Virus record (IMG/VR): IMGVR_UViG_3300029945_000585
From: a virus
DNA: 32,551 nt
Reading direction: 5' to 3' (one strand)
Made by a program: the position numbers and the translations under genes. Positions 10,516 through 24,338 of the stretch are shown piece after piece; within the stretch, counting starts at the first letter, position 1; every line of letters begins with the position of its first letter. The notes below the pieces were generated by a model. It saw only the letters and a program-made list of their open reading frames with translations. It was not told where the DNA came from and did not search any database.

Positions 10516-10827
10516 CTAGTCGTGGCGGTCTTGGTCGATACCGTTATGGCCGGTCTGCACCGCTGTCTGTAAATCGACGATAAACTCCTTCTGCAAGACC
10601 ACCAATTCCTCATAGGCTTTGTTCAGTTCGCGCGACTTGGCGATGTGCCGGTCCTGGATATCCACGATGTCGGAATACGACCCGATCATGCTGCGCGCCT
10701 TGTCCATCTGCTGTTCCTGAAGATCAATCGTTTCCTTCAGGACAAGCAAGTTCGCTTGAAGCTGGGTGATCATCGTTTCCTGTAATTTGATCATATTCTG
10801 CAACTGAGCCATGGTGACGATCGCCAT
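10516..10827 (-). CDS. Coiled-coil protein, paralog A
   Basis: MAIVTMAQLQNMIKLQETMITQLQANLLVLKETIDLQEQQMDKARS... GGGAAAGAG Shine-Dalgarno upstream. Heptad-rich. Confidence 0.55.
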   Translation of the reverse strand: MAIVTMAQLQNMIKLQETMITQLQANLLVLKETIDLQEQQMDKARSMIGSYSDIVDIQDRHIAKSRELNKAYEELVVLQKEFIVDLQTAVQTGHNGIDQDRHD

Positions 10828-10899
10828 TGTGAACTCTTTCCCGCAGTTCCTTGCGAGAAGTTTTACCTGATCCGGCATGCCCTGCCAAGACCGGCAATC

Positions 10900-11175
10900 T
10901 TATGCAGGTTGTGCCCCAAACTCTGAAAGGCAGCGCGCGGGACTGCCCTGACGTTTAAGGCGCTGCACGGCCTGCAAATTGGCAATAAACTGCCTCTGCA
11001 AGATCACCAGTTCCCCATAGGTTTTGTTCAATTCGTGCGCTGTTTTGATGCGCTGCTCCTGGAGCATAAGGGTTTCTTTCAGGGTGACCACGTCCGCATG
11101 AAGCTGGGCGATCGTCGCGTCCTGTAAGTCGATCATTTGCTGCAACTGACTGAGTGTGGGGGTGACGGAGGCCAT
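10900..11175 (-). CDS. Coiled-coil protein, paralog B (tandem duplicate of 10516..10827)
   Basis: MASVTPTLSQLQQMIDLQDATIAQLHADVVTLKETLMLQEQRIKTAHELNKTYGELVILQRQFIANLQAVQ. Collinear similarity to paralog A (QLQ.MI.LQ...I.QL.A....LKET..LQEQ). Confidence 0.55.
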   Translation of the reverse strand: MASVTPTLSQLQQMIDLQDATIAQLHADVVTLKETLMLQEQRIKTAHELNKTYGELVILQRQFIANLQAVQRLKRQGSPARCLSEFGAQPA

Positions 11176-11269
11176 TGCGAAACCCTTTCTTGCAGTTTCG
11201 TTCAAGGTTTCACACGATCTGTCAATTCTTCACTTTTTGCAAGACCATCTTGAACGCCATTGCGGCCTG

Positions 11270-11548: not shown

Positions 11549-11995
11549 TCACATTTCTGTCGCGAGGTCCAGAGGCCATAGAGCCGCTTCAGGAGGCGGT
11601 TGCGGTTCGCCGGGGTCAGTGCTGCCAGGAATGCCTTCTCGAACGTCTGGAGGGCCTTGCTGAGCCAGCGTTTGGCCGGTTCTGCGAACCAGCACGCCTT
11701 CGCCAATCTTGCGCGCTTGATTAAGATCGATTATCGATCCCGACATCGACCCATAAGCCCCCATGTAACCGATTGCGAGATCGCTGTATTTCGGCATGCC
11801 GAGATCGGCTAGCGTGGTGTATCCCAGCGGTAGTTCAATCGGTGTGCGATTGCGGCCACGATAGGTCGTCCAGACCGCCTTGCGCGGCTCCGCCTCCAGC
11901 AGACGGGCCGCGATGTCACGCAGGATACGCCGGGCATGATTGCGTTGGGTGCGATCGCTGGCGGCATCCTCAGCGAGGAGTTCAAAATAGCGCAT
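11549..11995 (-). CDS. CTS-like N-peptide family protein; possible R-S-E-type ART-like (YRG, GSMSGS, GEGVLV)
   Basis: MRYFELLAEDA... N-terminus. CCTAAATA then 6 nt then ATG. TTYRGRN, YGSMSGS and KIGEGVLVRR are partly consistent with Arg / S-x-S / Glu ART motifs, but the catalytic Glu register is shifted. Confidence 0.55.
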   Translation of the reverse strand: MRYFELLAEDAASDRTQRNHARRILRDIAARLLEAEPRKAVWTTYRGRNRTPIELPLGYTTLADLGMPKYSDLAIGYMGAYGSMSGSIIDLNQARKIGEGVLVRRTGQTLAQQGPPDVREGIPGSTDPGEPQPPPEAALWPLDLATEM

Positions 11996-12046
11996 GAGCG
12001 ATATTTAGGTGATCCAGCCTGCTGCCCGATCGCTTCGTCATGTCGC

Positions 12047-12610
12047 TCAGCGGTACTTCAAGCGGGCCTTGGAACCGACTTTGAAGTGTTGTTTGATCTG
12101 CTTCACTTCATCTGAGGACATAGTCCGCGCGTCTTTGTCGTACTTGTAGTCCTTAAACCGATGGTGACGGTCCGTAATCTCTTGGCCGGTATCGAATTCG
12201 TGACCGTGGCTGCGTTCAATCCAACCATGCCCGCCATACTTTTCACGCGCAATGACATCCAAAGGAACCACGCGGTTGACCTTGAGCTTTTCAAATTGAT
12301 CAGCCGGGATGAAAATTTCGCTGCTCCAACGTCCAACTGTATCATGCTCAAGAGCCGATGGATCAGCATATATCTCAGCAACAAACGCTCTCAGATAATC
12401 GTGGCCGTTAACCCAGGGTTCAACGTCACGAGTAAGGTAGATGCCCTTATGTCCCGAGCGTGGGGAAATGGACAAGGCGTTGTCCTCAGGTGCGTAGTTC
12501 GGATTGAGTTTGAAGTTGGCCTTGTTGGTGATGTGATAGAGCTTGACCGGACCAGCGGGCGTGTCCTCGTCTTCAGTCACAATCTCTATGAAGCGGCGGA
12601 TGTCGTGCAT
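12047..12610 (-). CDS. CTS-like N-peptide family protein; possible H-Y-E-type ART-like
   Basis: Start at MHDIRRFIEIVTEDE (ATG 12610). CCTAAATA then 4 nt then ATG. VKLYHITNKANF, GIYLTRD and WSSEIFIP are arranged like the YHGT/Y/E motifs of the 5080 gene. Confidence 0.55.
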   Translation of the reverse strand: MHDIRRFIEIVTEDEDTPAGPVKLYHITNKANFKLNPNYAPEDNALSISPRSGHKGIYLTRDVEPWVNGHDYLRAFVAEIYADPSALEHDTVGRWSSEIFIPADQFEKLKVNRVVPLDVIAREKYGGHGWIERSHGHEFDTGQEITDRHHRFKDYKYDKDARTMSSDEVKQIKQHFKVGSKARLKYR

Positions 12611-12639
12611 GCGATATTTAGGCACAGCCCAACAGGTCC

Positions 12640-13287
12640 TTATTTCCTCTCGCCCAGACGCAGTTTGACGTCCTGGCGGGACAGAAAATAGGTTTTGCCT
12701 TTGATGCGAACATGCGGATGCCCGAGGGTCATCGAGGTCACCACGCCGGACTGACCGCTGAGATGTCCGTAGCTCTCCCGCGCATGCTCATTGGTCCACT
12801 GATCGGTCACCGTGACCTTGGCGCCGGGCTGGAGCGTCGTGATGACCGGCGGTGGGATGTTGATCTCGACCTGTTTGACATAGGCCGGGAAGACGCAGAC
12901 CTGCCGGATGTCTTCGTTGCCGACCGCCCGGCCTTCCTTGATGACGATGCCATCATGCTGCTGGCGACAGGCGGCCAAATCGAATTGCTCGAACGTCGCG
13001 GCACTGGCCGTGGCAAACACATAGGGATTATACAGCACGATGCGGCATTGCACGGGATCGCCAAAGCGTTTCGCCATCAGTTTTGTCGGCGCGGCGTAGA
13101 GGCCATCGCCCAGCAGATATTGGCGTTTGAGTTTGGCCTGCCATCGATCGCTCAACGGGGTGCTGGTGCGGCCCTGGCCCCGCCATGCATAAAACAGCGC
13201 GGGCTGACCGGTTTGCAATTCATGCCAGGGGGTCTCCGGCGGCAAGCCCCGGACGCCCGTTTCGGCGATGATCTCATGATAGCGCAT
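12640..13287 (-). CDS. CTS-like N-peptide family protein; weak R-S-E ART-like motifs
   Basis: MRYHEIIAETG... N-terminus. TTTAAATA then 6 nt then ATG, with TTGACA 17-18 nt further upstream. ALFYAWRGQG and LYAAPT are weak Arg / S-T-S-like motifs. Confidence 0.55.
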   Translation of the reverse strand: MRYHEIIAETGVRGLPPETPWHELQTGQPALFYAWRGQGRTSTPLSDRWQAKLKRQYLLGDGLYAAPTKLMAKRFGDPVQCRIVLYNPYVFATASAATFEQFDLAACRQQHDGIVIKEGRAVGNEDIRQVCVFPAYVKQVEINIPPPVITTLQPGAKVTVTDQWTNEHARESYGHLSGQSGVVTSMTLGHPHVRIKGKTYFLSRQDVKLRLGERK

Positions 13288-13455
13288 AGGCTGTATTTAA
13301 ATCGCTGACCAGTTTTGCTGTCAAGTCTTCTTGATCGGTGTAACGAAGCGCTTAGTCGCGAAGCCGATGAACTGTGACGAGATACGTCATGCGTTTCCCG
13401 AGAGTTCTCCTCGGCATGGCGGCGCACGCTTAGGAATTGGTTTAAATAAACCTAA

Positions 13456-13812
13456 TCACGCGTCGGATCGTCGATTGAATATCGTTTTCAAAAACTTTAT
13501 GCGATCACGCGCGCTCTTGATGCCATCCAGCGCTTGGTTGTGGACGCGGCGTGGCGCAAAGCGTAATACGCCACCCAGCGCTTCCATTTCGCTCGTGAGC
13601 TTGTCTTCGAGTGCGTCCAATGCGCTATTCATAAGCTCTCGATCGTCATCTGACCAGTCGGTCATCAAGCTTGCTCCATAGTCAGCCCCATGACGGACAG
13701 ACCCGTGCTGAGCCATATAAACCGCTCGTTGCGCCTTTTCAGCCGTGATTGATGCCTCAGCCCTTCGCATGGCCTCAAGCATGGCTTTATTTGCCAGTCT
13801 CCGATTGACCAT
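13456..13812 (-). CDS. Hypothetical protein
   Basis: 118-aa ORF on the same strand as the downstream family genes. No recognisable motif. Confidence 0.35.
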   Translation of the reverse strand: MVNRRLANKAMLEAMRRAEASITAEKAQRAVYMAQHGSVRHGADYGASLMTDWSDDDRELMNSALDALEDKLTSEMEALGGVLRFAPRRVHNQALDGIKSARDRIKFLKTIFNRRSDA

Positions 13813-13932
13813 AATACAGCATCTTTTGTGAGGACGCTGAGTATTCGATCATAGCCTATTGGCTGTCAATCGCGCTGTTGAACCGTCGGCGCCTCCGGTC
13901 ACGCGGCGCGTCCACGCCAGTCTAAATATGCC

Positions 13933-14517
13933 ATGAACGATCTCAGGAAATGGATGCAATTGACGGAAGCGCTGGAACCCGATCCCATCGAGGACGAGCG
14001 GCCGGATGAGCTTGCCGAGCTATTAAGCGAATGGATCGACACTGATCCGAACATGACGGATGATTACCGTCAGCAAAAGGCGAGTTTGGCCCAGAGCCTG
14101 TTGCGCTATGACGATATCGCCGCCAAGTTCCGCGAGGTTTCCGCTCCGGTGCTCTATCGGGGGATCAGTCTGCGTAAACCGCGTTTTAACCTGGAGCAGC
14201 ATTTGCTGGTCAAGCCGCGCCGGACCGATGTGTTTGAATCGTGGACGATGCAGCGCCCGATGGCGGATTTGCATGCCATGCGCCCCTGGCTGGTGGATGC
14301 GTCGCTGCGCACCCGAACCATGAGCCGATCGGCATATCCATTCATCATTGCGGAACAAGTGGCCCGGCTGCCGATCTGGATCAATATCTCAACTTTCATG
14401 CATTGGGCGGGCAAGACCACGAATGAGGGCGAGGTCCTGGTGCGGGCCGCGCCACGGGCCTATGCCAGGGTGTATGATGCGCCACGGGTGCCAGGGATGC
14501 CAAATCGTGACAGGTGA
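13933..14517 (+). CDS. CTS-like N-peptide family protein; R-S-E clade ADP-ribosyltransferase (cholera/C3/iota/T4 Alt-ModB type)
   Basis: MNDLRKWMQLTEALE N-terminus. TCTAAATA then 4 nt then ATG. Motif 1 PVLYRGISL (aromatic-R). Motif 2 FESWT (S-x-T). Motif 3 TNEGEVLVR matches the [QE]-x-E-V-L hydrophobic catalytic loop of C3/iota/Vip2. Confidence 0.7.
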   Translation: MNDLRKWMQLTEALEPDPIEDERPDELAELLSEWIDTDPNMTDDYRQQKASLAQSLLRYDDIAAKFREVSAPVLYRGISLRKPRFNLEQHLLVKPRRTDVFESWTMQRPMADLHAMRPWLVDASLRTRTMSRSAYPFIIAEQVARLPIWINISTFMHWAGKTTNEGEVLVRAAPRAYARVYDAPRVPGMPNRDR

Positions 14518-14968
14518 TCTCAGAAAATGGCTGCGGCTGGTTGAAGCAGCAGGGTCGTTTACGCCTGAACAAGCGCGTGAAATCGGCAGTTGCGCGATTA
14601 TCGCCATGGCGCATATCACCGGACTATCCTGGGATCAGGTGTGGGAACAGGCCAAACCGTACTATACCCGCTTTGGCATGGACGCTGGCGCGATTGGTGC
14701 GACCATGCGCGAACTTGGCTGGAAATACGGCGATAAATCGAATTGGAAGCTGCTCGGTATGCCGGTTGGTCTGGCGAGTGCCAAGGCGATGACTGTCCAG
14801 CAAGCGCAGGTCTATCTGCAAGAACATGAGCCGGATGCCCGCTTGATATGCCTGATTCACGCGCGCGGTGTCCCCCATTCGATCGCGTTCGCCGATGGGC
14901 AATTTCATAATGTCGAAGGGGCATGGCGGGCCAGAATACGTTTGGCGTATTATTGCACGCAAGATTGA
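14507..14968 (+). CDS. CTS-like N-peptide family protein, GTG start overlapping the upstream stop by 11 nt; possible Cys-His (papain-like) enzyme
   Basis: GTG at 14507 gives (M)TGDLRKWLRLVEAAG, matching the family motif. Overlaps the TGA of 13933..14517 (translational coupling). GSCAIIAMAHITG and VPHSIAFADGQFHN suggest a Cys/His dyad. Confidence 0.5.
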   Translation: MTGDLRKWLRLVEAAGSFTPEQAREIGSCAIIAMAHITGLSWDQVWEQAKPYYTRFGMDAGAIGATMRELGWKYGDKSNWKLLGMPVGLASAKAMTVQQAQVYLQEHEPDARLICLIHARGVPHSIAFADGQFHNVEGAWRARIRLAYYCTQD

Positions 14969-15574: not shown

Positions 15575-15781
15575 TATCTGCCGCAAATCGTTCGCGCATT
15601 TTGTCGAACGGCAGTATCCGATATCGTGAGTAGGAGCATCGAGAGTTCTGATTGACTGAGATATATGATGCGCCCATCGTGTTCTCGGCGGTGAATTTTC
15701 ACGCGCTTAAAACATTGCAATGAAATATTTTTCGCGGCAGCAATGTTCGCAGAAGCAATCTTTGTCAAAAGGAGTCTCAAC

Positions 15782-17740
15782 ATGGCCCTCAGTCCCACAG
15801 CGAGCCTGACACCCACAGCAACAATCACTCCCACGCCAACTTTGCCAAGTCCGACTGTGACCCCAAGCCCAACCGTGACTCCGAGTCCAACCATAACTCC
15901 AAGTCCGACTGTGACTCCAAGCCCAACCATAACTCCAAGCCCAACGATGACCCCAACTGGGACGATAACTCCAAGCCCAACCATAACTCCAAGCCCAACG
16001 ATGACCCCAACTGGGACGATAACTCCAAGCCCAACGATGACCCCAAGCCCAACCATGACTCCCAGTCCGACTGTCACTCCAAGCCCAACGATGACTCCAA
16101 GCCCGACGATGACCCCAACTGGGACGATGACCCCGAGTCCAACTATAACTCCAAGCCCAACGATGACCCCAACTGGGACGATGACCCCAAGCCCAACCAT
16201 GACTCCCAGTCCGACCATAACTCCAAGTCCAACCAGAAGTATGACAGGAACTGCAACGCAGTCGCCGACCGCAACTTCGACGCCCAGCCCGACCCTGCCA
16301 TCGACAACGGTCACAAGCACGCAGAGTCTGATTATAAAGAATCCAGTCAACCAATCATTACCGGTGATTGCCCTGCCGCCGACTATCACATCGACGCTAT
16401 CGGTCACGTTAAGCCCCACGATACCGATTGCGACCCTGACTGGGACAAATACGGTCACCTCGGTCGCAACGGTCTCCGGCACACTGTCGCCCACCCTGGC
16501 CGGACAAAACATCGCGGTAGCGACTGGCACTACCCTGATGACTGGCGGCAATGCGAAAGGCAGCATTGTGAGCCTCCCGCCTCCCATCCCCGGTCCTACA
16601 CCTGCTCCGGCGACCAACATCGTAGTCAATGTCTCGGATTCGCTCACTGTGGTGGCGGGATCAAACGGCAACATCACCGTCGATGAATCAAGTGATATCA
16701 ATATTGTCGAGCAGGAAAACAGCGGGGCTTTGCTGACCATCAACGTGGCGCAAAACGTCATGGTCAGTGGCAATTTCCTGCCAAGCAGTGCGGGCACCGG
16801 ACAGGCAGACCAACTGGTCATCACGGGCGGCACCAGTGCGACCTATCAGCATTGGGGCGATACCGAATTCCAGGTCAATTCGAGCGCCAGCATCGATGCC
16901 AATCTGACCGGTTGTGGCACGTTCACATTCTCTTCGAGTACGGCGTTGCAGGTTCAAGAAGGTTGCGGAAACGGCCAAGACTTCTATGTCAGTACCGGCC
17001 TCATGGTGATCGATCAAGTCAGCAGTTTTGGTGGGTATATCTCGCTCGATTCGACGACCGATGTCAGTGCCAGCACTGGCGGCGGGCAGGTAATGTTGAT
17101 GGGGGTCACTGGTATCACGAGCTATCAGTCTTATGATGGGCATCTGCAACTATACAGCGGCACGACCTTGATGGAGTCGCTCAATGTTGATGACAAAGGC
17201 GGGTTTGGCGCGATCCAGACCGCAACCGGTGTCGAGTTGCAAACTGGATCGAGTGTCACGCCGACAAATGGAACACTGATCGCGAACACGACAACCACAA
17301 CCGAAATATCAGAAGGCTTAAACATCAATCCACAGGGACTGACATTCGATTCGATGACGTTCATTCATGATTCGTCCGGAATTATGGCCTCTGACGCAAG
17401 CACGATTACCGCCTCGGCATCCGCGTCAATTGGGTTTACGTTTACGGGCGGCTCCGACGCGGATGTGTTTGGCTGCGACGGGCTTGGGAGCAACACCGTG
17501 ATCAACTTCCATGCGTCCGATATTTTTCAGATTGCCAGTGTCAATTCGTTGAGCGATACCTTCTCATGGCAACAGGTCAGTCTCGGGAGTGAAAATGGCT
17601 TGGTCCTCACCGCGACGTCTAAAGTGAACCTATCTGAAACGACGAGCTTCTTGTTTGCCGGATACGCCTCGGCGGACATCAACACGCGATTGGTGCTAGC
17701 CGATACCACCACGGGTAGTGTCGTCACCGCCAAAGCGTGA
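15782..17740 (+). CDS. TPSPT-repeat linker protein with C-terminal beta-helix-like (adhesin/tail-spike-like) domain
   Basis: AAGGAG 8 nt upstream of ATG 15782. ~22 tandem TPSPT[VIM] hexapeptides. ~450-aa C-terminal region rich in G/S/T/N/V beta-strand repeats. No classical signal peptide seen. Confidence 0.7.
   Translation: MALSPTASLTPTATITPTPTLPSPTVTPSPTVTPSPTITPSPTVTPSPTITPSPTMTPTGTITPSPTITPSPTMTPTGTITPSPTMTPSPTMTPSPTVTPSPTMTPSPTMTPTGTMTPSPTITPSPTMTPTGTMTPSPTMTPSPTITPSPTRSMTGTATQSPTATSTPSPTLPSTTVTSTQSLIIKNPVNQSLPVIALPPTITSTLSVTLSPTIPIATLTGTNTVTSVATVSGTLSPTLAGQNIAVATGTTLMTGGNAKGSIVSLPPPIPGPTPAPATNIVVNVSDSLTVVAGSNGNITVDESSDINIVEQENSGALLTINVAQNVMVSGNFLPSSAGTGQADQLVITGGTSATYQHWGDTEFQVNSSASIDANLTGCGTFTFSSSTALQVQEGCGNGQDFYVSTGLMVIDQVSSFGGYISLDSTTDVSASTGGGQVMLMGVTGITSYQSYDGHLQLYSGTTLMESLNVDDKGGFGAIQTATGVELQTGSSVTPTNGTLIANTTTTTEISEGLNINPQGLTFDSMTFIHDSSGIMASDASTITASASASIGFTFTGGSDADVFGCDGLGSNTVINFHASDIFQIASVNSLSDTFSWQQVSLGSENGLVLTATSKVNLSETTSFLFAGYASADINTRLVLADTTTGSVVTAKA
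15845..16240 (+). repeat. Tandem 18-nt coding repeat (ACTCCAAGCCCAACCRTR...) encoding TPSPT[VIM]/TPTGT[IM] units
   Basis: Direct reading of near-identical 18-nt units. The long antisense ORF 15571..16833 (GLGV repeats) is its mirror artifact. Confidence 0.8.
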
Positions 17741-17761
17741 TGCGCAATATGATTCCTGTTT

Positions 17762-17788
17762 AGTCCGCCTTCGGGCGGACTTCTTTTT
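17762..17788 (+). terminator. Rho-independent terminator after the repeat protein gene
   Basis: AGTCCGCC-ttcg-GGCGGACT followed by TCTTTTT, 22 nt after the stop at 17740. Confidence 0.7.
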
Positions 17789-17801
17789 GAGGGCTTTGCC
17801 T

Positions 17802-18869
17802 ATGCGGATTGGCGTTTACACGATTGCTTTGAATGAGGCGCAGTTTGTTGATCGCTGGTTCGAGTCCGCCCGTGCCGCCGATTACTGGCTCGTCGCCGAC
17901 ACTGGTTCGACTGACGGCATGCAGGAACGTTTGCAGGCATACGGGGTGGACGTTCGCTCGATCGCGATCCGGCCCTGGCGCTTTGATGATGCCCGTAACG
18001 CGGCTCTGGCGATGGTTCCAGCCGATATCGATGTGGTCGTGGCCTTGGATATGGATGAGGTGCTGAGACCCGGCTGGCGCGAACGGGTGATCCGCCATTG
18101 GACAGAATGCACACGGCTACGCTATCGCTACGTGTGGTCCTGGACGGAGCACAAGCAACCGGACGTAATGTATTATGATGTCAAAATAACCACCCGCCAT
18201 GGATGGCGTTGGAGGTATCCAGTTCACGAGGTGCTGTTCCCCACAATCTCCGATGCCATGGTTACCTGTGATGACATCCTCGTTGAACATCATCCGGATT
18301 ATACCAAGCCACGTTCGCAATATCTGCCTTTGCTGCAACTGGCGGTGCAGGAAGATCGGCACGACAGTCGATGCAGTTTTCTGCTCGCACGGGAATATTT
18401 CGCACAAGGGCAATACGCCGAAGCGATTCAGCAATACGAAAGCTATTTGGCGTTACCGGCCGCCAATTGGTTTGTGGAGCGAGCGGCAGCGATGCGCCAC
18501 GTCGGGAAGAGCCACGAAGTGCTCGGCAATATCTCGGCCGCCCATACGTGGTTTTCACGGGCGACCATTGAGGACCCGACCTCGCGCGAAGTATTGGTCG
18601 ATGCTGGCCGCTTCCTCGCCGGGCAAGGACGTCATCACGCGGCGATCGACCTGTGTGAGCGGGTCATGCATCTATCGAATGAAATGAGTCCGCAGCAGGA
18701 CGAACGCTATGCCCGTGCCGAAGGGGCGTATGATGTCGCCGCCGTCGCCTATTTCAGTTTGGGCGACTACCCTCAGGCTGTGGCAATGGCGGAAAAGGCG
18801 GTGGAACTGAATCCGCATGAGCCACGCTTGCAGGCAAATTTGGAGATGATCCGCACGAAGCTGCGATGA
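17802..18869 (+). CDS. Family-2-like glycosyltransferase with C-terminal TPR repeats
   Basis: MRIGVYTIALNEAQFVDRWFES... is typical of GT-A/GT2-like proteins. C-terminal YAEAIQQYESYLAL...LGDYPQAVAMAEKAVELNP are TPR-like repeats. Confidence 0.65.
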   Translation: MRIGVYTIALNEAQFVDRWFESARAADYWLVADTGSTDGMQERLQAYGVDVRSIAIRPWRFDDARNAALAMVPADIDVVVALDMDEVLRPGWRERVIRHWTECTRLRYRYVWSWTEHKQPDVMYYDVKITTRHGWRWRYPVHEVLFPTISDAMVTCDDILVEHHPDYTKPRSQYLPLLQLAVQEDRHDSRCSFLLAREYFAQGQYAEAIQQYESYLALPAANWFVERAAAMRHVGKSHEVLGNISAAHTWFSRATIEDPTSREVLVDAGRFLAGQGRHHAAIDLCERVMHLSNEMSPQQDERYARAEGAYDVAAVAYFSLGDYPQAVAMAEKAVELNPHEPRLQANLEMIRTKLR

Positions 18870-21078: not shown

Positions 21079-21219
21079 CGACCGACCACAACATCCCGGC
21101 GCCAGGGGCATTCTGCGCACGGGATCGGCATGCAAAAATCATTCATCTTCACGCTCCCATCACAGCTATTGTTCGAACAGTGGTTTTCGGTAGGATCACG
21201 ACAGTTGGAAGGGTTACCC

Positions 21220-21510
21220 ATGTCACAGGCGGACGAAACACAAATCGCGGCTTTGCTCGAAAGTCTGACCGACGAGCGGCTGAATGCCATGACGGAAGCT
21301 GAATTGGATGCCGCTTTGGCTATCGTAGGAATTGATAGCACAAAGTTGCTCGAAGGGGCGGCAAAGCTAATTGATCAGGCACGGATCATGGGCAAGATCG
21401 ATGACGTGGAGACGCCTCGCATTTCACCCGAGCGAGCGTTGAGGTTGTTTTACGGCCGTTCATCGCCTTGTGGTGAGCATCCGGGCGATAATGCCGACCA
21501 CGATCATTAG
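21220..21510 (+). CDS. Hypothetical acidic protein
   Basis: MSQADETQIAALLESLTDERLNAMTEAELDAALAIVG... GGAAGG upstream. Confidence 0.4.
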   Translation: MSQADETQIAALLESLTDERLNAMTEAELDAALAIVGIDSTKLLEGAAKLIDQARIMGKIDDVETPRISPERALRLFYGRSSPCGEHPGDNADHDH

Positions 21511-21678
21511 CAAACTCCAAACGATGGCCGCAGGGATGCTGTGTGGTGGCGGCATCAGGTTAGCGGCAGTCGCCACCATAATGAGTTGCAGATAAAATCC
21601 CCGCGATATGACCCCTGCTATGCGTGCGGCAAGCATCACCACGTAGAATGCCAAGAGCAGCCAGCCTACTCCTCCCAT
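21460..21678 (-). CDS. Small membrane protein (2 predicted TM helices, 72 aa)
   Basis: MGGVGWLLLAFYVVMLAARIAGVISRGFYLQLIMVATAANLMPPPHSIPAAIVWSLLMIVVGIIARMLTTRR. Confidence 0.35.
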   Translation of the reverse strand: MGGVGWLLLAFYVVMLAARIAGVISRGFYLQLIMVATAANLMPPPHSIPAAIVWSLLMIVVGIIARMLTTRR

Positions 21679-21691
21679 ACCACACCTCAGG

Positions 21692-21838
21692 TCACCGGGA
21701 GAGTCCAGTATCAGAATGCCACTCGCTGCGCGAATCGTGTTCGCCCCCAAAGAACGACCAAAACGACGTGAACAGCCAGAGCATCGCCACCACAATCACG
21801 GCGGTCGAGATGCGAGGATGGCGCCGGAAAATTCCCAT
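21692..21838 (-). CDS. Small membrane protein (1 TM, 48 aa)
   Basis: MGIFRRHPRISTAVIVVAMLWLFTSFWSFFGGEHDSRSEWHSDTGLSR, 13 nt upstream of the previous small membrane gene. Below the ORF-track cutoff. Confidence 0.3.
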   Translation of the reverse strand: MGIFRRHPRISTAVIVVAMLWLFTSFWSFFGGEHDSRSEWHSDTGLSR

Positions 21839-21843
21839 TGTAT

Positions 21844-22452
21844 TCACTCCGGGTCAATGGGCCGCTGCGACGCTCCCACCTCATCGGCATCCTTTGAACC
21901 CGAGTATTCACCGGTTTGAAATCCAACCGGGAATCGGAACTTTGGATCGGCCACGGCCCAAAGGTGGTACTGGTTGGAGGCATCCATGAGGCGTGATCGA
22001 GCCGGGTATAGCTCGATAGCCTCACACTCAGGTCCCACCAATTCATCTTTACAGCGCTGCAAATCACGCCAATCGTGAATCGGCGTTTGATCGAGGCGCT
22101 TGATCGACAGATATACCATGTTGTCGCCGCTTTCCCGCAGGAGCACTTGATAGCGCGAGTTGACGAACAGCTTGCTCGCGGTCTGCTCTGCAAAATGGGC
22201 GAGCACCTGGGCTTCGGACAGATCGGTTTGTTTCATAAACGCTTTGATCTGCGCGGTGGTCAGAGGCCGATGCGTGCGTTCCTCGAACGGTGTCCAGGGC
22301 GCCTGTTCGATCAGGCCACGATCCGCCCGATCCAGAACATCCCGCGCCATTTTATAAACTGATCCATTGCGGATCGCCGCAACCGTGTCGCTGATATCGA
22401 TGAGCCGCAGCAAGGCTGCCAGTGCACCTGTTAAATCACGCCGACTACTCAT
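21844..22452 (-). CDS. Hypothetical protein
   Basis: 202-aa ORF within the insertion. Confidence 0.5.
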   Translation of the reverse strand: MSSRRDLTGALAALLRLIDISDTVAAIRNGSVYKMARDVLDRADRGLIEQAPWTPFEERTHRPLTTAQIKAFMKQTDLSEAQVLAHFAEQTASKLFVNSRYQVLLRESGDNMVYLSIKRLDQTPIHDWRDLQRCKDELVGPECEAIELYPARSRLMDASNQYHLWAVADPKFRFPVGFQTGEYSGSKDADEVGASQRPIDPE

Positions 22453-22489
22453 GGTTCCAATGTTCCCTTCAACCCAGCGCGGTGGCTGG

Positions 22490-22897
22490 TTAATCCAATC
22501 TCAACTGTGTATTCAGCGACTTCGGACGTACCTTGAACCAGATGTGTAGCTCGCGTTCAAGGAAGGTGAAATCGTCCGGTTTATCGTCTTGTAGCGCTCG
22601 CCATTCAAAATCGCTGTAATGTGTTGGATGCATCGGCACATCAAAATTGTCCCGATTGGGAAATTCGCGAGTGCCAGACCCAAGCCGATAGATCATCAAT
22701 TTGGGCGTCCAGTCTTCATCGGGAGTCTCCCGTTCCAAATACACCCGATGCAGCTTGGCTGGATGGGTGAACGCCAGTCCGACCCGCATGCCGGGCGCTA
22801 CGATCTCAAAGGTAAACCCATACCGCATGAGCAGATCAGCATAGCGCTTATGTGCGGCATCCTCGTAGTGGATGGATAGGCTTTCGTCGATTGACAT
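22490..22897 (-). CDS. Hypothetical protein
   Basis: 135-aa ORF within the insertion. Confidence 0.5.
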   Translation of the reverse strand: MSIDESLSIHYEDAAHKRYADLLMRYGFTFEIVAPGMRVGLAFTHPAKLHRVYLERETPDEDWTPKLMIYRLGSGTREFPNRDNFDVPMHPTHYSDFEWRALQDDKPDDFTFLERELHIWFKVRPKSLNTQLRLD

Positions 22898-22967
22898 GAT
22901 CAGGCCCTCATCAATTCATCAGTGACAGGAATCTTGCGCGTACCAAACTTGACCTTTTTGATATCGC

Positions 22968-23528
22968 CTAGCATGGCGGTGCAGCCGGTTGCAGAGCCAG
23001 GATACGGGCCGCTTCGGTGCGGCATTGCGCTGCCCGATCGGGGTTGCCCATCCCATCATAGATCGCGGCGGCCGTTTCGTAATAGCCTGCGGCCTTAGCA
23101 TAGCGCCCAGCTTCCTCGCTGTATCCGGCGTTTTCTTCGGCCCGCTCGGCTGCGTCCCGTTGCTGGCGGACCGCCTCAGCATCCCGCGCCTTTTGGAACA
23201 ACATCGAGGCAGACCCCGCCAGATTCTGCTTGCGCCCCATCCACTCGCCTACCATGGCACTTTCTTTGGGTGAAAGCATGCCTTCACCGATCCAGGCATC
23301 AACCAACTGGCCCTCCGCGACCGGACCAAAGCCGGGGATAAACCCGCTGCTCATCGCCTTGCGCCATTGGACATGGCCCTTGGGGTGGCCCTTGTTCTTC
23401 CCGGTTTGGAGGATCGGCAGGCTGGCGATGGCTTCCTCGCCAAACAGCTTCGTCGCCCACTCGCGTCCAAAGTCGGAAGACAGCGCGGCGTGCTTGGTAA
23501 GAAGCTGAACAGTGGGGCGACGAGCCAT
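22968..23528 (-). CDS. Hypothetical protein with C-terminal TPR-like helical repeats
   Basis: AAGGA 8 nt upstream of the ATG at 23528 (MARRPTVQ...). C-terminal AGYSEEAGRYAKAAGYYETAAAIYDGMGNPDRAAQ. Confidence 0.45.
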   Translation of the reverse strand: MARRPTVQLLTKHAALSSDFGREWATKLFGEEAIASLPILQTGKNKGHPKGHVQWRKAMSSGFIPGFGPVAEGQLVDAWIGEGMLSPKESAMVGEWMGRKQNLAGSASMLFQKARDAEAVRQQRDAAERAEENAGYSEEAGRYAKAAGYYETAAAIYDGMGNPDRAAQCRTEAARILALQPAAPPC

Positions 23529-23717
23529 AACCAACATCCTTGAAAGACAGGATGTTCATACCACGTTCGAAGCGTTTGTCAACTGAATTGGTTCGGAATC
23601 GGACAGACTGCTGTGTGCTTAATTAGTTTAGGTTGGTCGGGTAGCCAGGAAATCCGCGTACTGTCCAAGACGGCCGCCACGCCCTCGCAGGCTTCGGTTT
23701 GGCCCAGGTTCGGGCTT

Positions 23718-24338
23718 CCCCGTTACCTGGGCGCCATACTCACGGGCCAGCGTCAAGGCCATGCCGCCCCAGCCACAGCCGATATCGAGCACGTGTAAAT
23801 CAGATCGATCGAGGCGTAATTTGGCGGCGATGCGATGTTTCTTCGCGGTCTGGGCTTCGTCCAAGGTTTCGTCGCCGCGTGCGAAATAGCCGCAGGAATA
23901 TTGCCGGTCCCGATCGAGGAACAGACTGTAGAGACGCCCATTCAGATCGTAATGGTGCGCCACATTGCGTTGGGCGCGCGCGACGGGATTGTACTGCGTG
24001 AGTGTGCGCAGAAGGTTCGCCAGCCATTGGCGAACCCGAAACATCGGATGGCTGGTCGGATCACGCTCTAGATTGGTCAGCAGCACGTGCAGCACGTCGT
24101 AGATGCTGTCGCCGCGCTCGCAATCCACGGTGATGCTTCCGTCCATGTAGCCCTCGCCCAGCCCCAGGGAGGGGTTCAGCACCAAGCGGCGAATGGTTCG
24201 CTGATCATGCACTTTGAATTTGGCGCGAGGCATGCCCCCATGTTGCCCGTAGCCGGTCTGCGATCCATCGGGCCAAACGACGGTTAACCGCCCGACGACA
24301 ACGAGACGTCTGAAGAGGTGATCCAGAATCTGTTGCAT
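23718..24338 (-). pseudogene. cfa: CFA synthase N-terminal fragment (through the SAM-binding motif VLDIGCGWGGMALTLAREYGAQVTG)
   Basis: N-terminal ...WPDGS... and the VLDIGCGWGG motif I. Reading continues into non-homologous inserted sequence before a stop at 23628. Confidence 0.7.

Follow-up and report, generated by a model that had tools for sequence, protein, structure and literature searches.

The window analysed here, a 32,551-nucleotide stretch of viral DNA (IMG/VR record IMGVR_UViG_3300029945_000585), comes from an uncultured jumbo phage in which eight small genes have in common an N-terminal peptide of about 10 residues, hereafter the tag, followed by otherwise different proteins. The tag resembles the capsid targeting sequence (CTS) of phage T4, and we consider it probable, at roughly 0.7, that the tag genes encode effectors that are packaged into the phage head, processed by a protease and injected. 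A sequence-only reading of the window had listed seven such N-termini, and all seven were found at the starts of open reading frames (ORFs): 5080 MSIRAWMRLVEA, 11995(-) MRYFELLAED, 12610(-) MHDIRRFIEIVTED, 13287(-) MRYHEIIAET, 13933 MNDLRKWMQLTEA, 14507 (GTG start) VTGDLRKWLRLVEA and 25910 MHVFRKWMRLFEA. An eighth, missed in that reading, lies at 4405-4659. The genes, named below by the coordinate of their start codon, are the following; a slash marks the end of the tag, and SD stands for a Shine-Dalgarno sequence.

4405-4659, plus strand: the eighth tag gene, 84 amino acids (aa), MTLRELLQITE/R; TAAATA box at 4394-4399, 5-nt spacer, no SD.
5080-5838, plus strand: tag gene, 252 aa, MSIRAWMRLVE/A, with a Pro-rich linker between the tag and an ART-PolyVal domain; TAAATA box at 5046-5051, 28-nt leader, GAGGA SD.
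11549-11995, minus strand: tag gene, 148 aa, MRYFELLAE/D; box at 12002-12007, 6-nt spacer, no SD; TYRG motif.
12047-12610, minus strand: tag gene, 187 aa, MHDIRRFIEIVTE/D; box at 12615-12620, 4-nt spacer, no SD.
12640-13287, minus strand: tag gene, 215 aa, MRYHEIIAE/T; box at 13294-13299, 6-nt spacer, no SD.
13933-14517, plus strand: tag gene, 194 aa, MNDLRKWMQLTE/A; box at 13923-13928, 4-nt spacer, no SD.
14507-14968, plus strand: tag gene, 153 aa, VTGDLRKWLRLVE/A, with a Cys/His-containing domain; its GTG start overlaps the stop of 13933.
25910-26281, plus strand: decayed tag gene, MHVFRKWMRLFE/A; box at 25898-25903, 6-nt spacer; abuts the end of cas3.

Over its first 9-13 residues the tag takes the form M-(x0-4)-[R/K]-x-aromatic/hydrophobic-x-x-[L/I]-x-E, and it exists in two variants, 'RKWMRLVE' and 'MRYxEΦΦxE'. 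The sequence-only reading had proposed a gapless alignment ending in [LI]-x-E; the ending was confirmed, all eight members closing on [LIV]-x-E (LVE, LTE, LFE, LAE, IAE, ITE or VTE), and the gapless alignment held in part, since the Glu of 12610 can be placed only with a one-residue offset. When a strict expression of the motif was run over all six frames, it matched only the starts of tag ORFs and gave 0 matches in 100 shuffles; a loose expression gave a mean of 0.26 matches per shuffle, and a loose N-terminal expression, tried in six frames at each internal Met that had 50 aa or more downstream, returned six true members and nothing else. Conservation is at the level of the peptide, because the same residues are encoded by different codons among the members (Arg by CGC, AGG, AGA and CGA; Leu by CTG, TTG and TTA; Glu by GAG and GAA). 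Clustering by BLAST and hhalign comparison of the tag proteins detected no similarity outside the peptide; the downstream domains do differ, as had been claimed, and the peptide therefore does not belong to a single globular fold common to them all, the outcome that would have spoken against a targeting peptide.

The identity of the phage was read from the following feature at the left edge of the window:

1-487, plus strand: C-terminal end of a 3549-aa giant virion (baseplate-associated) protein.

This protein matched phrog_10938, 'virion structural protein' (E=0, 1062 bits), and by tblastn was 26-31% identical to counterparts in 93 jumbo phage records of the Rak2, 121Q and PA5oct types; its homologue in PA5oct, gp355, sits after the baseplate wedge genes. 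Because of this protein the window is assigned to a Rak2/PA5oct-like jumbo phage, a group whose head assembly and late transcription are of the T4 type, and identical genes were found on peat-bog contigs of up to 259 kb, the 259-kb one being ENA ERZ27250025 k141_1547704. A bacterial chromosome, the first interpretation on account of the CRISPR-Cas and major vault protein (MVP) genes in the window, was ruled out by the phrog_10938 match. PA5oct encodes a late sigma factor and a T4-like head module; the module comprises the portal, gp333 and gp332, the head maturation protease, the scaffold and the major capsid protein (MCP), and in it gp331, gp330 and gp329 are the protease, scaffold and capsid counterparts; these are likewise present in phage CBB and in IMG/VR head modules.

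Six of the eight tag genes lack an SD and are instead preceded by a [C/T]TAAATA box that ends 4-6 nt before the ATG (4, 4, 5, 6, 6 and 6 nt), a feature missed by the sequence-only reading; ordinary genes of the window do have an SD. On the sibling contigs L007, L011, L013 and L015, each TAAATA-N2-9-ATG that opens an ORF of 40 aa or more belongs to a tag gene, and among 78 IMG/VR genes the spacer between box and ATG was 5 nt in 40, 4 nt in 29, 6 nt in eight and 7 nt in one. The T4 late promoter, TATAAATA, occupies -13 to -6, and its counterpart in the T4-like phage Aeh1, CTAAATA, occupies -12 to -6 (PMC1524935); the Rak2-like phage CBB, which carries gp20, gp21 and gp23 homologues, has the predicted late promoter ATAAATA (PMC5259590). 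The boxes of the tag genes match these published promoters, and late expression of the tag genes is supported at this level of sequence. With a 5-nt spacer, the geometry of Aeh1 and T4 would place +1 on the A of the ATG; since the boxes lie 4-6 nt from the ATG and no SD is present, leaderless late mRNAs are predicted for the six genes. Gene 14507 has no box of its own and is translationally coupled to 13933, with which it is co-transcribed. At least one virion protein gene of cultured PA5oct, gp262 (L019:17986-18855 region, L137 coordinates), has the same layout, with ATATAAATA followed by 5 nt and the ATG and no SD.

In T4, the CTS is MKTYQEFIAE (PMC8442874); the propeptides of the internal proteins are 10-19 aa long, with residues 4 and 7 serving targeting and residues 8 and 10 processing (PMC9026906), and the internal proteins are diverse defence proteins of which the CTS is the only shared part (PMC3012670). 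The N-termini of gp24 (MAKINELLRE/S), gp22 (MLKEQLIAE/A), gp21 (MNEPQLLIE/T) and gp67 (MEGLIE/A), read from the T4 genome, have the same layout as the window tags MRYHEIIAE/T, MRYFELLAE/D, RRFIEIVTE/D, LRELLQITE/R and RKWMQLTE/A. The proposed likeness to the T4 CTS was thereby upheld and reaches further, to the N-termini of the gp21 substrates gp24, gp22, gp21 and gp67.

Head proteins of related phages begin in a similar way. PA5oct gp333, a 73-aa protein detected in virions by mass spectrometry (ESI-MS/MS), occupies the position of T4 gp67 and starts MKINDIITE/G; in nine IMG/VR loci the orthologues, of 66 aa, begin with MRYKEVIKE and are placed between the portal gene and protease-scaffold-MCP genes with 55-68% identity to their PA5oct counterparts. 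Across 50 head modules picked by MCP only, the gene in the gp67 slot starts M[IK].[RKN][ED][LFM][FLY], and about two thirds of these genes have [G/T]ATAAATA, 5 nt and then ATG, with an SD in about one third. The N-terminus of the 4405 protein, MTLRELL, resembles the MILRELF of gp67-slot head proteins, and one family of the MRY class is homologous to PA5oct gp279, another virion protein by ESI-MS/MS, which starts MKLFEVFT. In an alignment of PA5oct-like MCPs, residues 16-20 form an invariant A-L-x-E-G, which is likely to be a maturation cleavage site of the same [L]-x-E type. In the giant phages phiKZ, 201phi2-1 and SPN3US, a gp21-related protease cleaves after Glu (PMC9026906).

The sequence-only reading had turned on whether similar N-terminal peptides exist elsewhere, and they do. 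The pattern TAAATA-N3-7-ATG-MRYxE-Φ-Φ-x-E was scanned against IMG/VR and found in 101 stretches, against fewer than one expected by chance from our own information-content estimate. The stretches have a GC content of 0.28-0.57, lie on contigs of up to 607 kb, often several per contig, and nearly all open ORFs of 60-670 aa; when the control hexamer AATTAA replaced the box, 11 stretches with one or two real ORFs were obtained. Sixty-eight tag proteins fell into 40 BLAST clusters, so that the peptide heads about 40 unrelated protein families, and the flanks of the scan loci yielded 155 distinct box-abutted ORFs, 104 of them with a tag-like N-terminus, RRWMRLxE forms included. A search with the RKW-class pattern returned, among the metagenomic matches listed, mostly chance hits and about four plausible members; a sibling viral contig of 152 kb from the same sample, IMG/VR UViG_3300045771_000049, carries both tag forms. 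MRYxEΦΦxE proteins were also seen in high-GC alphaproteobacteria (Sphingobium, Brevundimonas, Phenylobacterium and Methylobacterium), where they are basic, 64-95 aa long and preceded by [C/G]TAAATA at 4-5 nt (L140:5739, L143:6798 and about 12 further loci). A large serine recombinase gene adjoins one such locus and aroA another; the recombinase suggests integrated elements with the same promoter-tag layout.

The proteins behind the tag had been described as mostly ADP-ribosyltransferase-like (ART-like), a description that stood for some members and not for others. It is secure for 5080, which matches Pfam ART-PolyVal (PF18760) over residues 39-218 (E=7.3e-24; 85.6 bits against a gathering cut-off of 31.2) and which was the only window protein to find relatives when the tag-stripped sequences were compared by phmmer with all ORFs of the IMG/VR loci. 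Gene 25910 holds WYHGT in frame 0 and GFFFTSDEHHA in frame +1, and is therefore regarded as a frameshifted, truncated ART-PolyVal-like remnant. For 12610, 13287, 13933 and 11995 the likeness stays at the level of motifs. The LYHIT and GIYLT motifs of 12610 suggest an H-Y-E ART-like enzyme; the best segment of its hhalign comparison with the ART-PolyVal profile was YH.T alone, at a probability of 2%, and Pfam gave no match at E<=1. The 13287 protein has FYAWRG, GLYAAPT and DGIVIKEG motifs and is linked by BLASTP to a YHGT-containing tag protein (L044:1456-1992); no match to it was found in Pfam (E<=1) or the PDB. The 11995 protein had no match in Pfam (E<=1) or PHROGs.

The 13933 family could be followed further. 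Seven homologues were aligned out of 1.84 billion representatives (an earlier homologue search gave two), and a triad L[YF]R[GA] / SW[TS] / EGE[VL]LV is conserved across the eight sequences, which may correspond to the Arg / Ser-x-Thr / Glu-x-Glu triad of R-S-ExE ADP-ribosyltransferases (Alt/C3/CT-like); phmmer and profile searches with 13933 (Pfam at E<=1) and its family found no Pfam and no PDB match. Five of the seven homologues carry a tag of either class (MESDLRRWMRLVE, MKIADIISE, MKMREIM..., MPSMRELMSLTE and MLTMRELME) and two carry none, and the occurrence of either tag class on homologous cargo is the behaviour expected of an exchangeable targeting module. With the ART-PolyVal profile, hhalign aligned only the tag or the YH.T segment of 12610, 13287 and 13933, and single-sequence AlphaFold2 models were unusable (pLDDT 37 for 12610 and 36 for 13933). 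As none of these three is confirmed by Pfam, PDB or structure, the label 'mostly ART-like' is plausible but unproven. The remaining two proteins lack an ART motif: 14507 matched phrog_3754, a family of unknown function (E=2.9e-5), with no match in Pfam (E<=1) or the PDB, and 4405, called as an 84-aa gene on five independent contigs (L011-L015), had no match in Pfam (E<=0.01) or PHROGs.

Among the IMG/VR tag proteins, Pfam recognised ART-PolyVal in four (five with 5080), DUF3990 in one and Tpt1/KptA in one, and PHROGs recognised a kinase inhibiting host transcription and a 5'-3' deoxyribonucleotidase. YHG[TS] or YRG motifs within residues 11-70 were present in 15 of 104 tag proteins compared with 32 of 982 background ORFs. 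ARTs form the largest recognisable cargo class across the wider family, still a minority.

We propose the following course of events. Each tag gene would be transcribed late from a T4-type [C/T]TAAATA promoter, with transcription of six of the eight beginning on the A of the start codon, or immediately beside it, to give a leaderless mRNA. The tag would dock the protein onto the scaffolding core during prohead assembly, a gp21-type prohead protease would cut after [L/I]-x-Glu, and the freed enzyme would stay in the head and enter the next host with the DNA. The cargo would be a changeable set of host-takeover or anti-defence enzymes, with ART-fold proteins the most recognisable class. What the sequences show is the tag with its box and missing SD, the identity of the phage, tagged head proteins in related phages and a wide range of unrelated tagged families; transcription start site, core binding, injection and most of the cargo activities we infer. 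The claim of a CTS-like peptide on a diversified set of proteins finds support in the phage identity, the late boxes, the T4 likeness, the head proteins that carry the tag, the tagged homologue of the PA5oct virion protein gp279 and the approximately 40 families.

Several points weigh against this proposal. Packaging and cleavage of the tag proteins are deduced, and the leaderless start is a prediction from spacing. In the approximately 42 kb of this phage that were read, no gene for a prohead protease, scaffold or capsid was found, and the best 80 PA5oct-like loci of an MCP-profile search of IMG/VR did not include the bog sibling contig. Many gp67-slot proteins (MILRELFYFD...) have no Glu at positions 9-11, so not all tags are cleaved directly behind their end. 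Outside the bog lineage the RKW variant is seldom found, and it resembles the T4 CTS less than the MRY variant does; finally, the small box-bearing MRY proteins of alphaproteobacterial chromosomes do not stand in an obviously lytic jumbo phage context.

The tag could have a docking partner other than the head core, being held by a chaperone or inhibitor that silences toxic enzymes in the producer cell, or being directed to the tail or baseplate. Toxic ARTs do need restraint in the producer cell, the tag genes adjoin baseplate rather than head genes, and some gp67-slot tags have no Glu nearby; we nevertheless regard this as unlikely, since the nearest sequence counterparts of the tag all come from T4 head-core proteins or gp21 substrates, a conserved tag carrier sits in the head module and all eight tags end in [LIV]-x-E. 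It is considerably less probable that the conserved 5' coding sequence acts as an RNA or translation signal at leaderless mRNA 5' ends and not as a peptide: leaderless mRNAs are predicted for six of the eight genes and box and tag co-occur tightly, but the codons vary synonymously, even between CGN and AGR for Arg, and the tag is also present on 5080 with its leader and SD, on the coupled 14507, on PA5oct gp333 and on the one third or so of gp67-slot genes that bear an SD. Least credible of all is a relic of common ancestry, in which the members are paralogues with better-conserved N-termini and no targeting role; although the tag genes form a cluster with ART-like members among them, no similarity was detected outside the tag, the approximately 40 families are unrelated and spread over phages of 28-57% GC, and homologous cargo carries different tag variants.

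The sequence-only reading had offered as its alternative that the tagged enzymes are cargo of a vault, and this involves another feature of the window:

481-3842, plus strand: TAAATA box at 481-486 and an SD, followed by an operon of a 65-aa protein, a 180-aa protein and an MVP homologue (520-3842; MVP at 1353-3842).

The MVP homologue is phage-encoded and matches Pfam MVP_shoulder (4.7e-18) and Vault_3 (8.3e-6). Its operon lies directly behind the giant baseplate-type protein, a position at which PA5oct has gp356-gp358 (gp10-like). A literature search found a single report of viral MVPs, a 2023 preprint on two human-gut phages (bioRxiv 10.1101/2023.11.10.566534). By analogy with the vPARP of eukaryotic vaults, the tag would send enzymes into a vault-like shell formed by the MVP homologue, whose late-type operon lies 0.6-1.2 kb upstream of two tag genes, one cargo being an ART. 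However, the tag is present in at least 100 viral contigs, whereas an IMG/VR search for MVP found no close relative; it heads a conserved gp67-slot head protein beside portal and protease, six of the eight tag genes are 8-22 kb away from MVP, and Pfam detected no INT-like domain in the window tag proteins. Moreover, vPARP binds MVP through its C-terminal INT domain and not through an N-terminal decapeptide. The vault alternative is accordingly disfavoured. The tag may, also or instead, deliver ART-type enzymes into an MVP-homologue compartment during infection, a proposition to which we give little credence, slightly less than to an RNA signal; if true, it would be the first cargo-targeting signal of a prokaryotic or viral vault.

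Other parts of the window carry genes of separate interest. A phage-borne type I-C CRISPR-Cas system occupies 26285-32008, with cas3 on the minus strand followed by cas5c, cas8c and cas7c; no cas4, cas1 or cas2 was present behind cas7 in L007. The CRISPR array, at 8314-9223 with the repeat GTTTTCGTAGCCACCCAACGATAGGGTGACTGCAC, is 17 kb from the cas genes, and about 1.7 kb of decayed repeats adjoin it at 6588-8300. Between this array and the tag-gene cluster, adjacent to a DUF6471 protein, are two neighbouring paralogous coiled-coil proteins (10516-10878 and 10900-11205, minus strand) that share QLQ..I.LQ..TI.QL.A....LKET..LQEQ. At 15743-18869, a 665-aa protein with about 30 TPSPT-type repeats precedes a GT2 glycosyltransferase-TPR protein; the former may be a structural or fibre protein that is O-glycosylated, and the latter its partner glycosyltransferase. 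A cyclopropane-fatty-acid-synthase-like gene (CMAS) is seemingly split over approximately 21200-24338, its N-terminal part at 23628-24338(-) and its C-terminal part about 2.4 kb further left; between the parts lie DUF7694 and three ORFs without a Pfam match, an arrangement that resembles an insertion.

If the tag works like the T4 CTS, it would be a sequence 'zip code' by which head-packed, injected proteins can be picked from raw metagenomic DNA, and the injected effector repertoire would therefore be directly enumerable. This would cover a clade of T4-related jumbo phages that is very large and for the most part uncultured (PA5oct-like capsid genes were found in at least 600 IMG/VR stretches), with a repertoire that so far would comprise ART-fold enzymes, a kinase, a nucleotidase and dozens of unknown families, and foreign proteins could be loaded into jumbo phage heads with the tag as a portable label. 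From the fusion of promoter to ATG, late phage mRNAs of a leaderless class are predicted. T4 already provides the principle; what appears to be new is its reach into the Rak2/PA5oct-like jumbo clade (where the tag has two variants), the late promoter fused to the start codon and the breadth of the tagged repertoire. In the literature searched, no description was found of the jumbo-clade extension, the promoter-ATG fusion, the tagged repertoire or a class of leaderless late phage mRNAs.

The closest known system is the CTS of T4 (IPI, IPII, IPIII and Alt; gp21-processed), which like the tag has about 10 residues, a basic and an aromatic or hydrophobic residue and a terminal [L/I]-x-E, and which like the tag heads unrelated, fast-evolving, late-expressed proteins whose number includes an ART (Alt); MKTYQEFIAE is very close to the MRYHEIIAE and RRFIEIVTE of the window. 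The systems differ in that the clade described here consists of Rak2/PA5oct-like jumbo phages, with a GC content of 56% and two tag variants, RKWMRLVE among them, in that ART-like enzymes are more frequent among the tagged cargo, and in that the tag is known here from sequence alone. The T4 head genes read for this comparison have ordinary SD-type leaders, unlike those tag genes in which box and start codon are fused. Poxvirus late promoters (TAAATG) overlap the start codon, so that the late element abuts the ATG as in the tag genes, although the polymerase and virus are unrelated and the transcripts gain a 5' poly(A) head.

The giant phages phiKZ, 201phi2-1 and SPN3US also pack many proteins into the head, and their protease motif is S/A/G-x-E; they differ in having long propeptides with several sites, no short shared decapeptide, and RNA polymerases and promoters of their own. 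Encapsulin cargo-loading peptides and the vault INT domain resemble the tag as short tags with a linker that send diverse enzymes into a protein shell, but encapsulin tags are mostly C-terminal and uncleaved and INT is a 160-residue C-terminal domain, unlike the N-terminal tag; no encapsulin was seen here, and the tag does not track with MVP. The ART-PolyVal domain (PF18760) of polyvalent proteins, which by published inference are injected with the DNA (PMC7824862), is also the domain of 5080 and of four IMG/VR tag proteins. In polyvalent proteins the ART is one module of a polyprotein of several thousand residues, whereas here it is a small stand-alone protein behind the tag.

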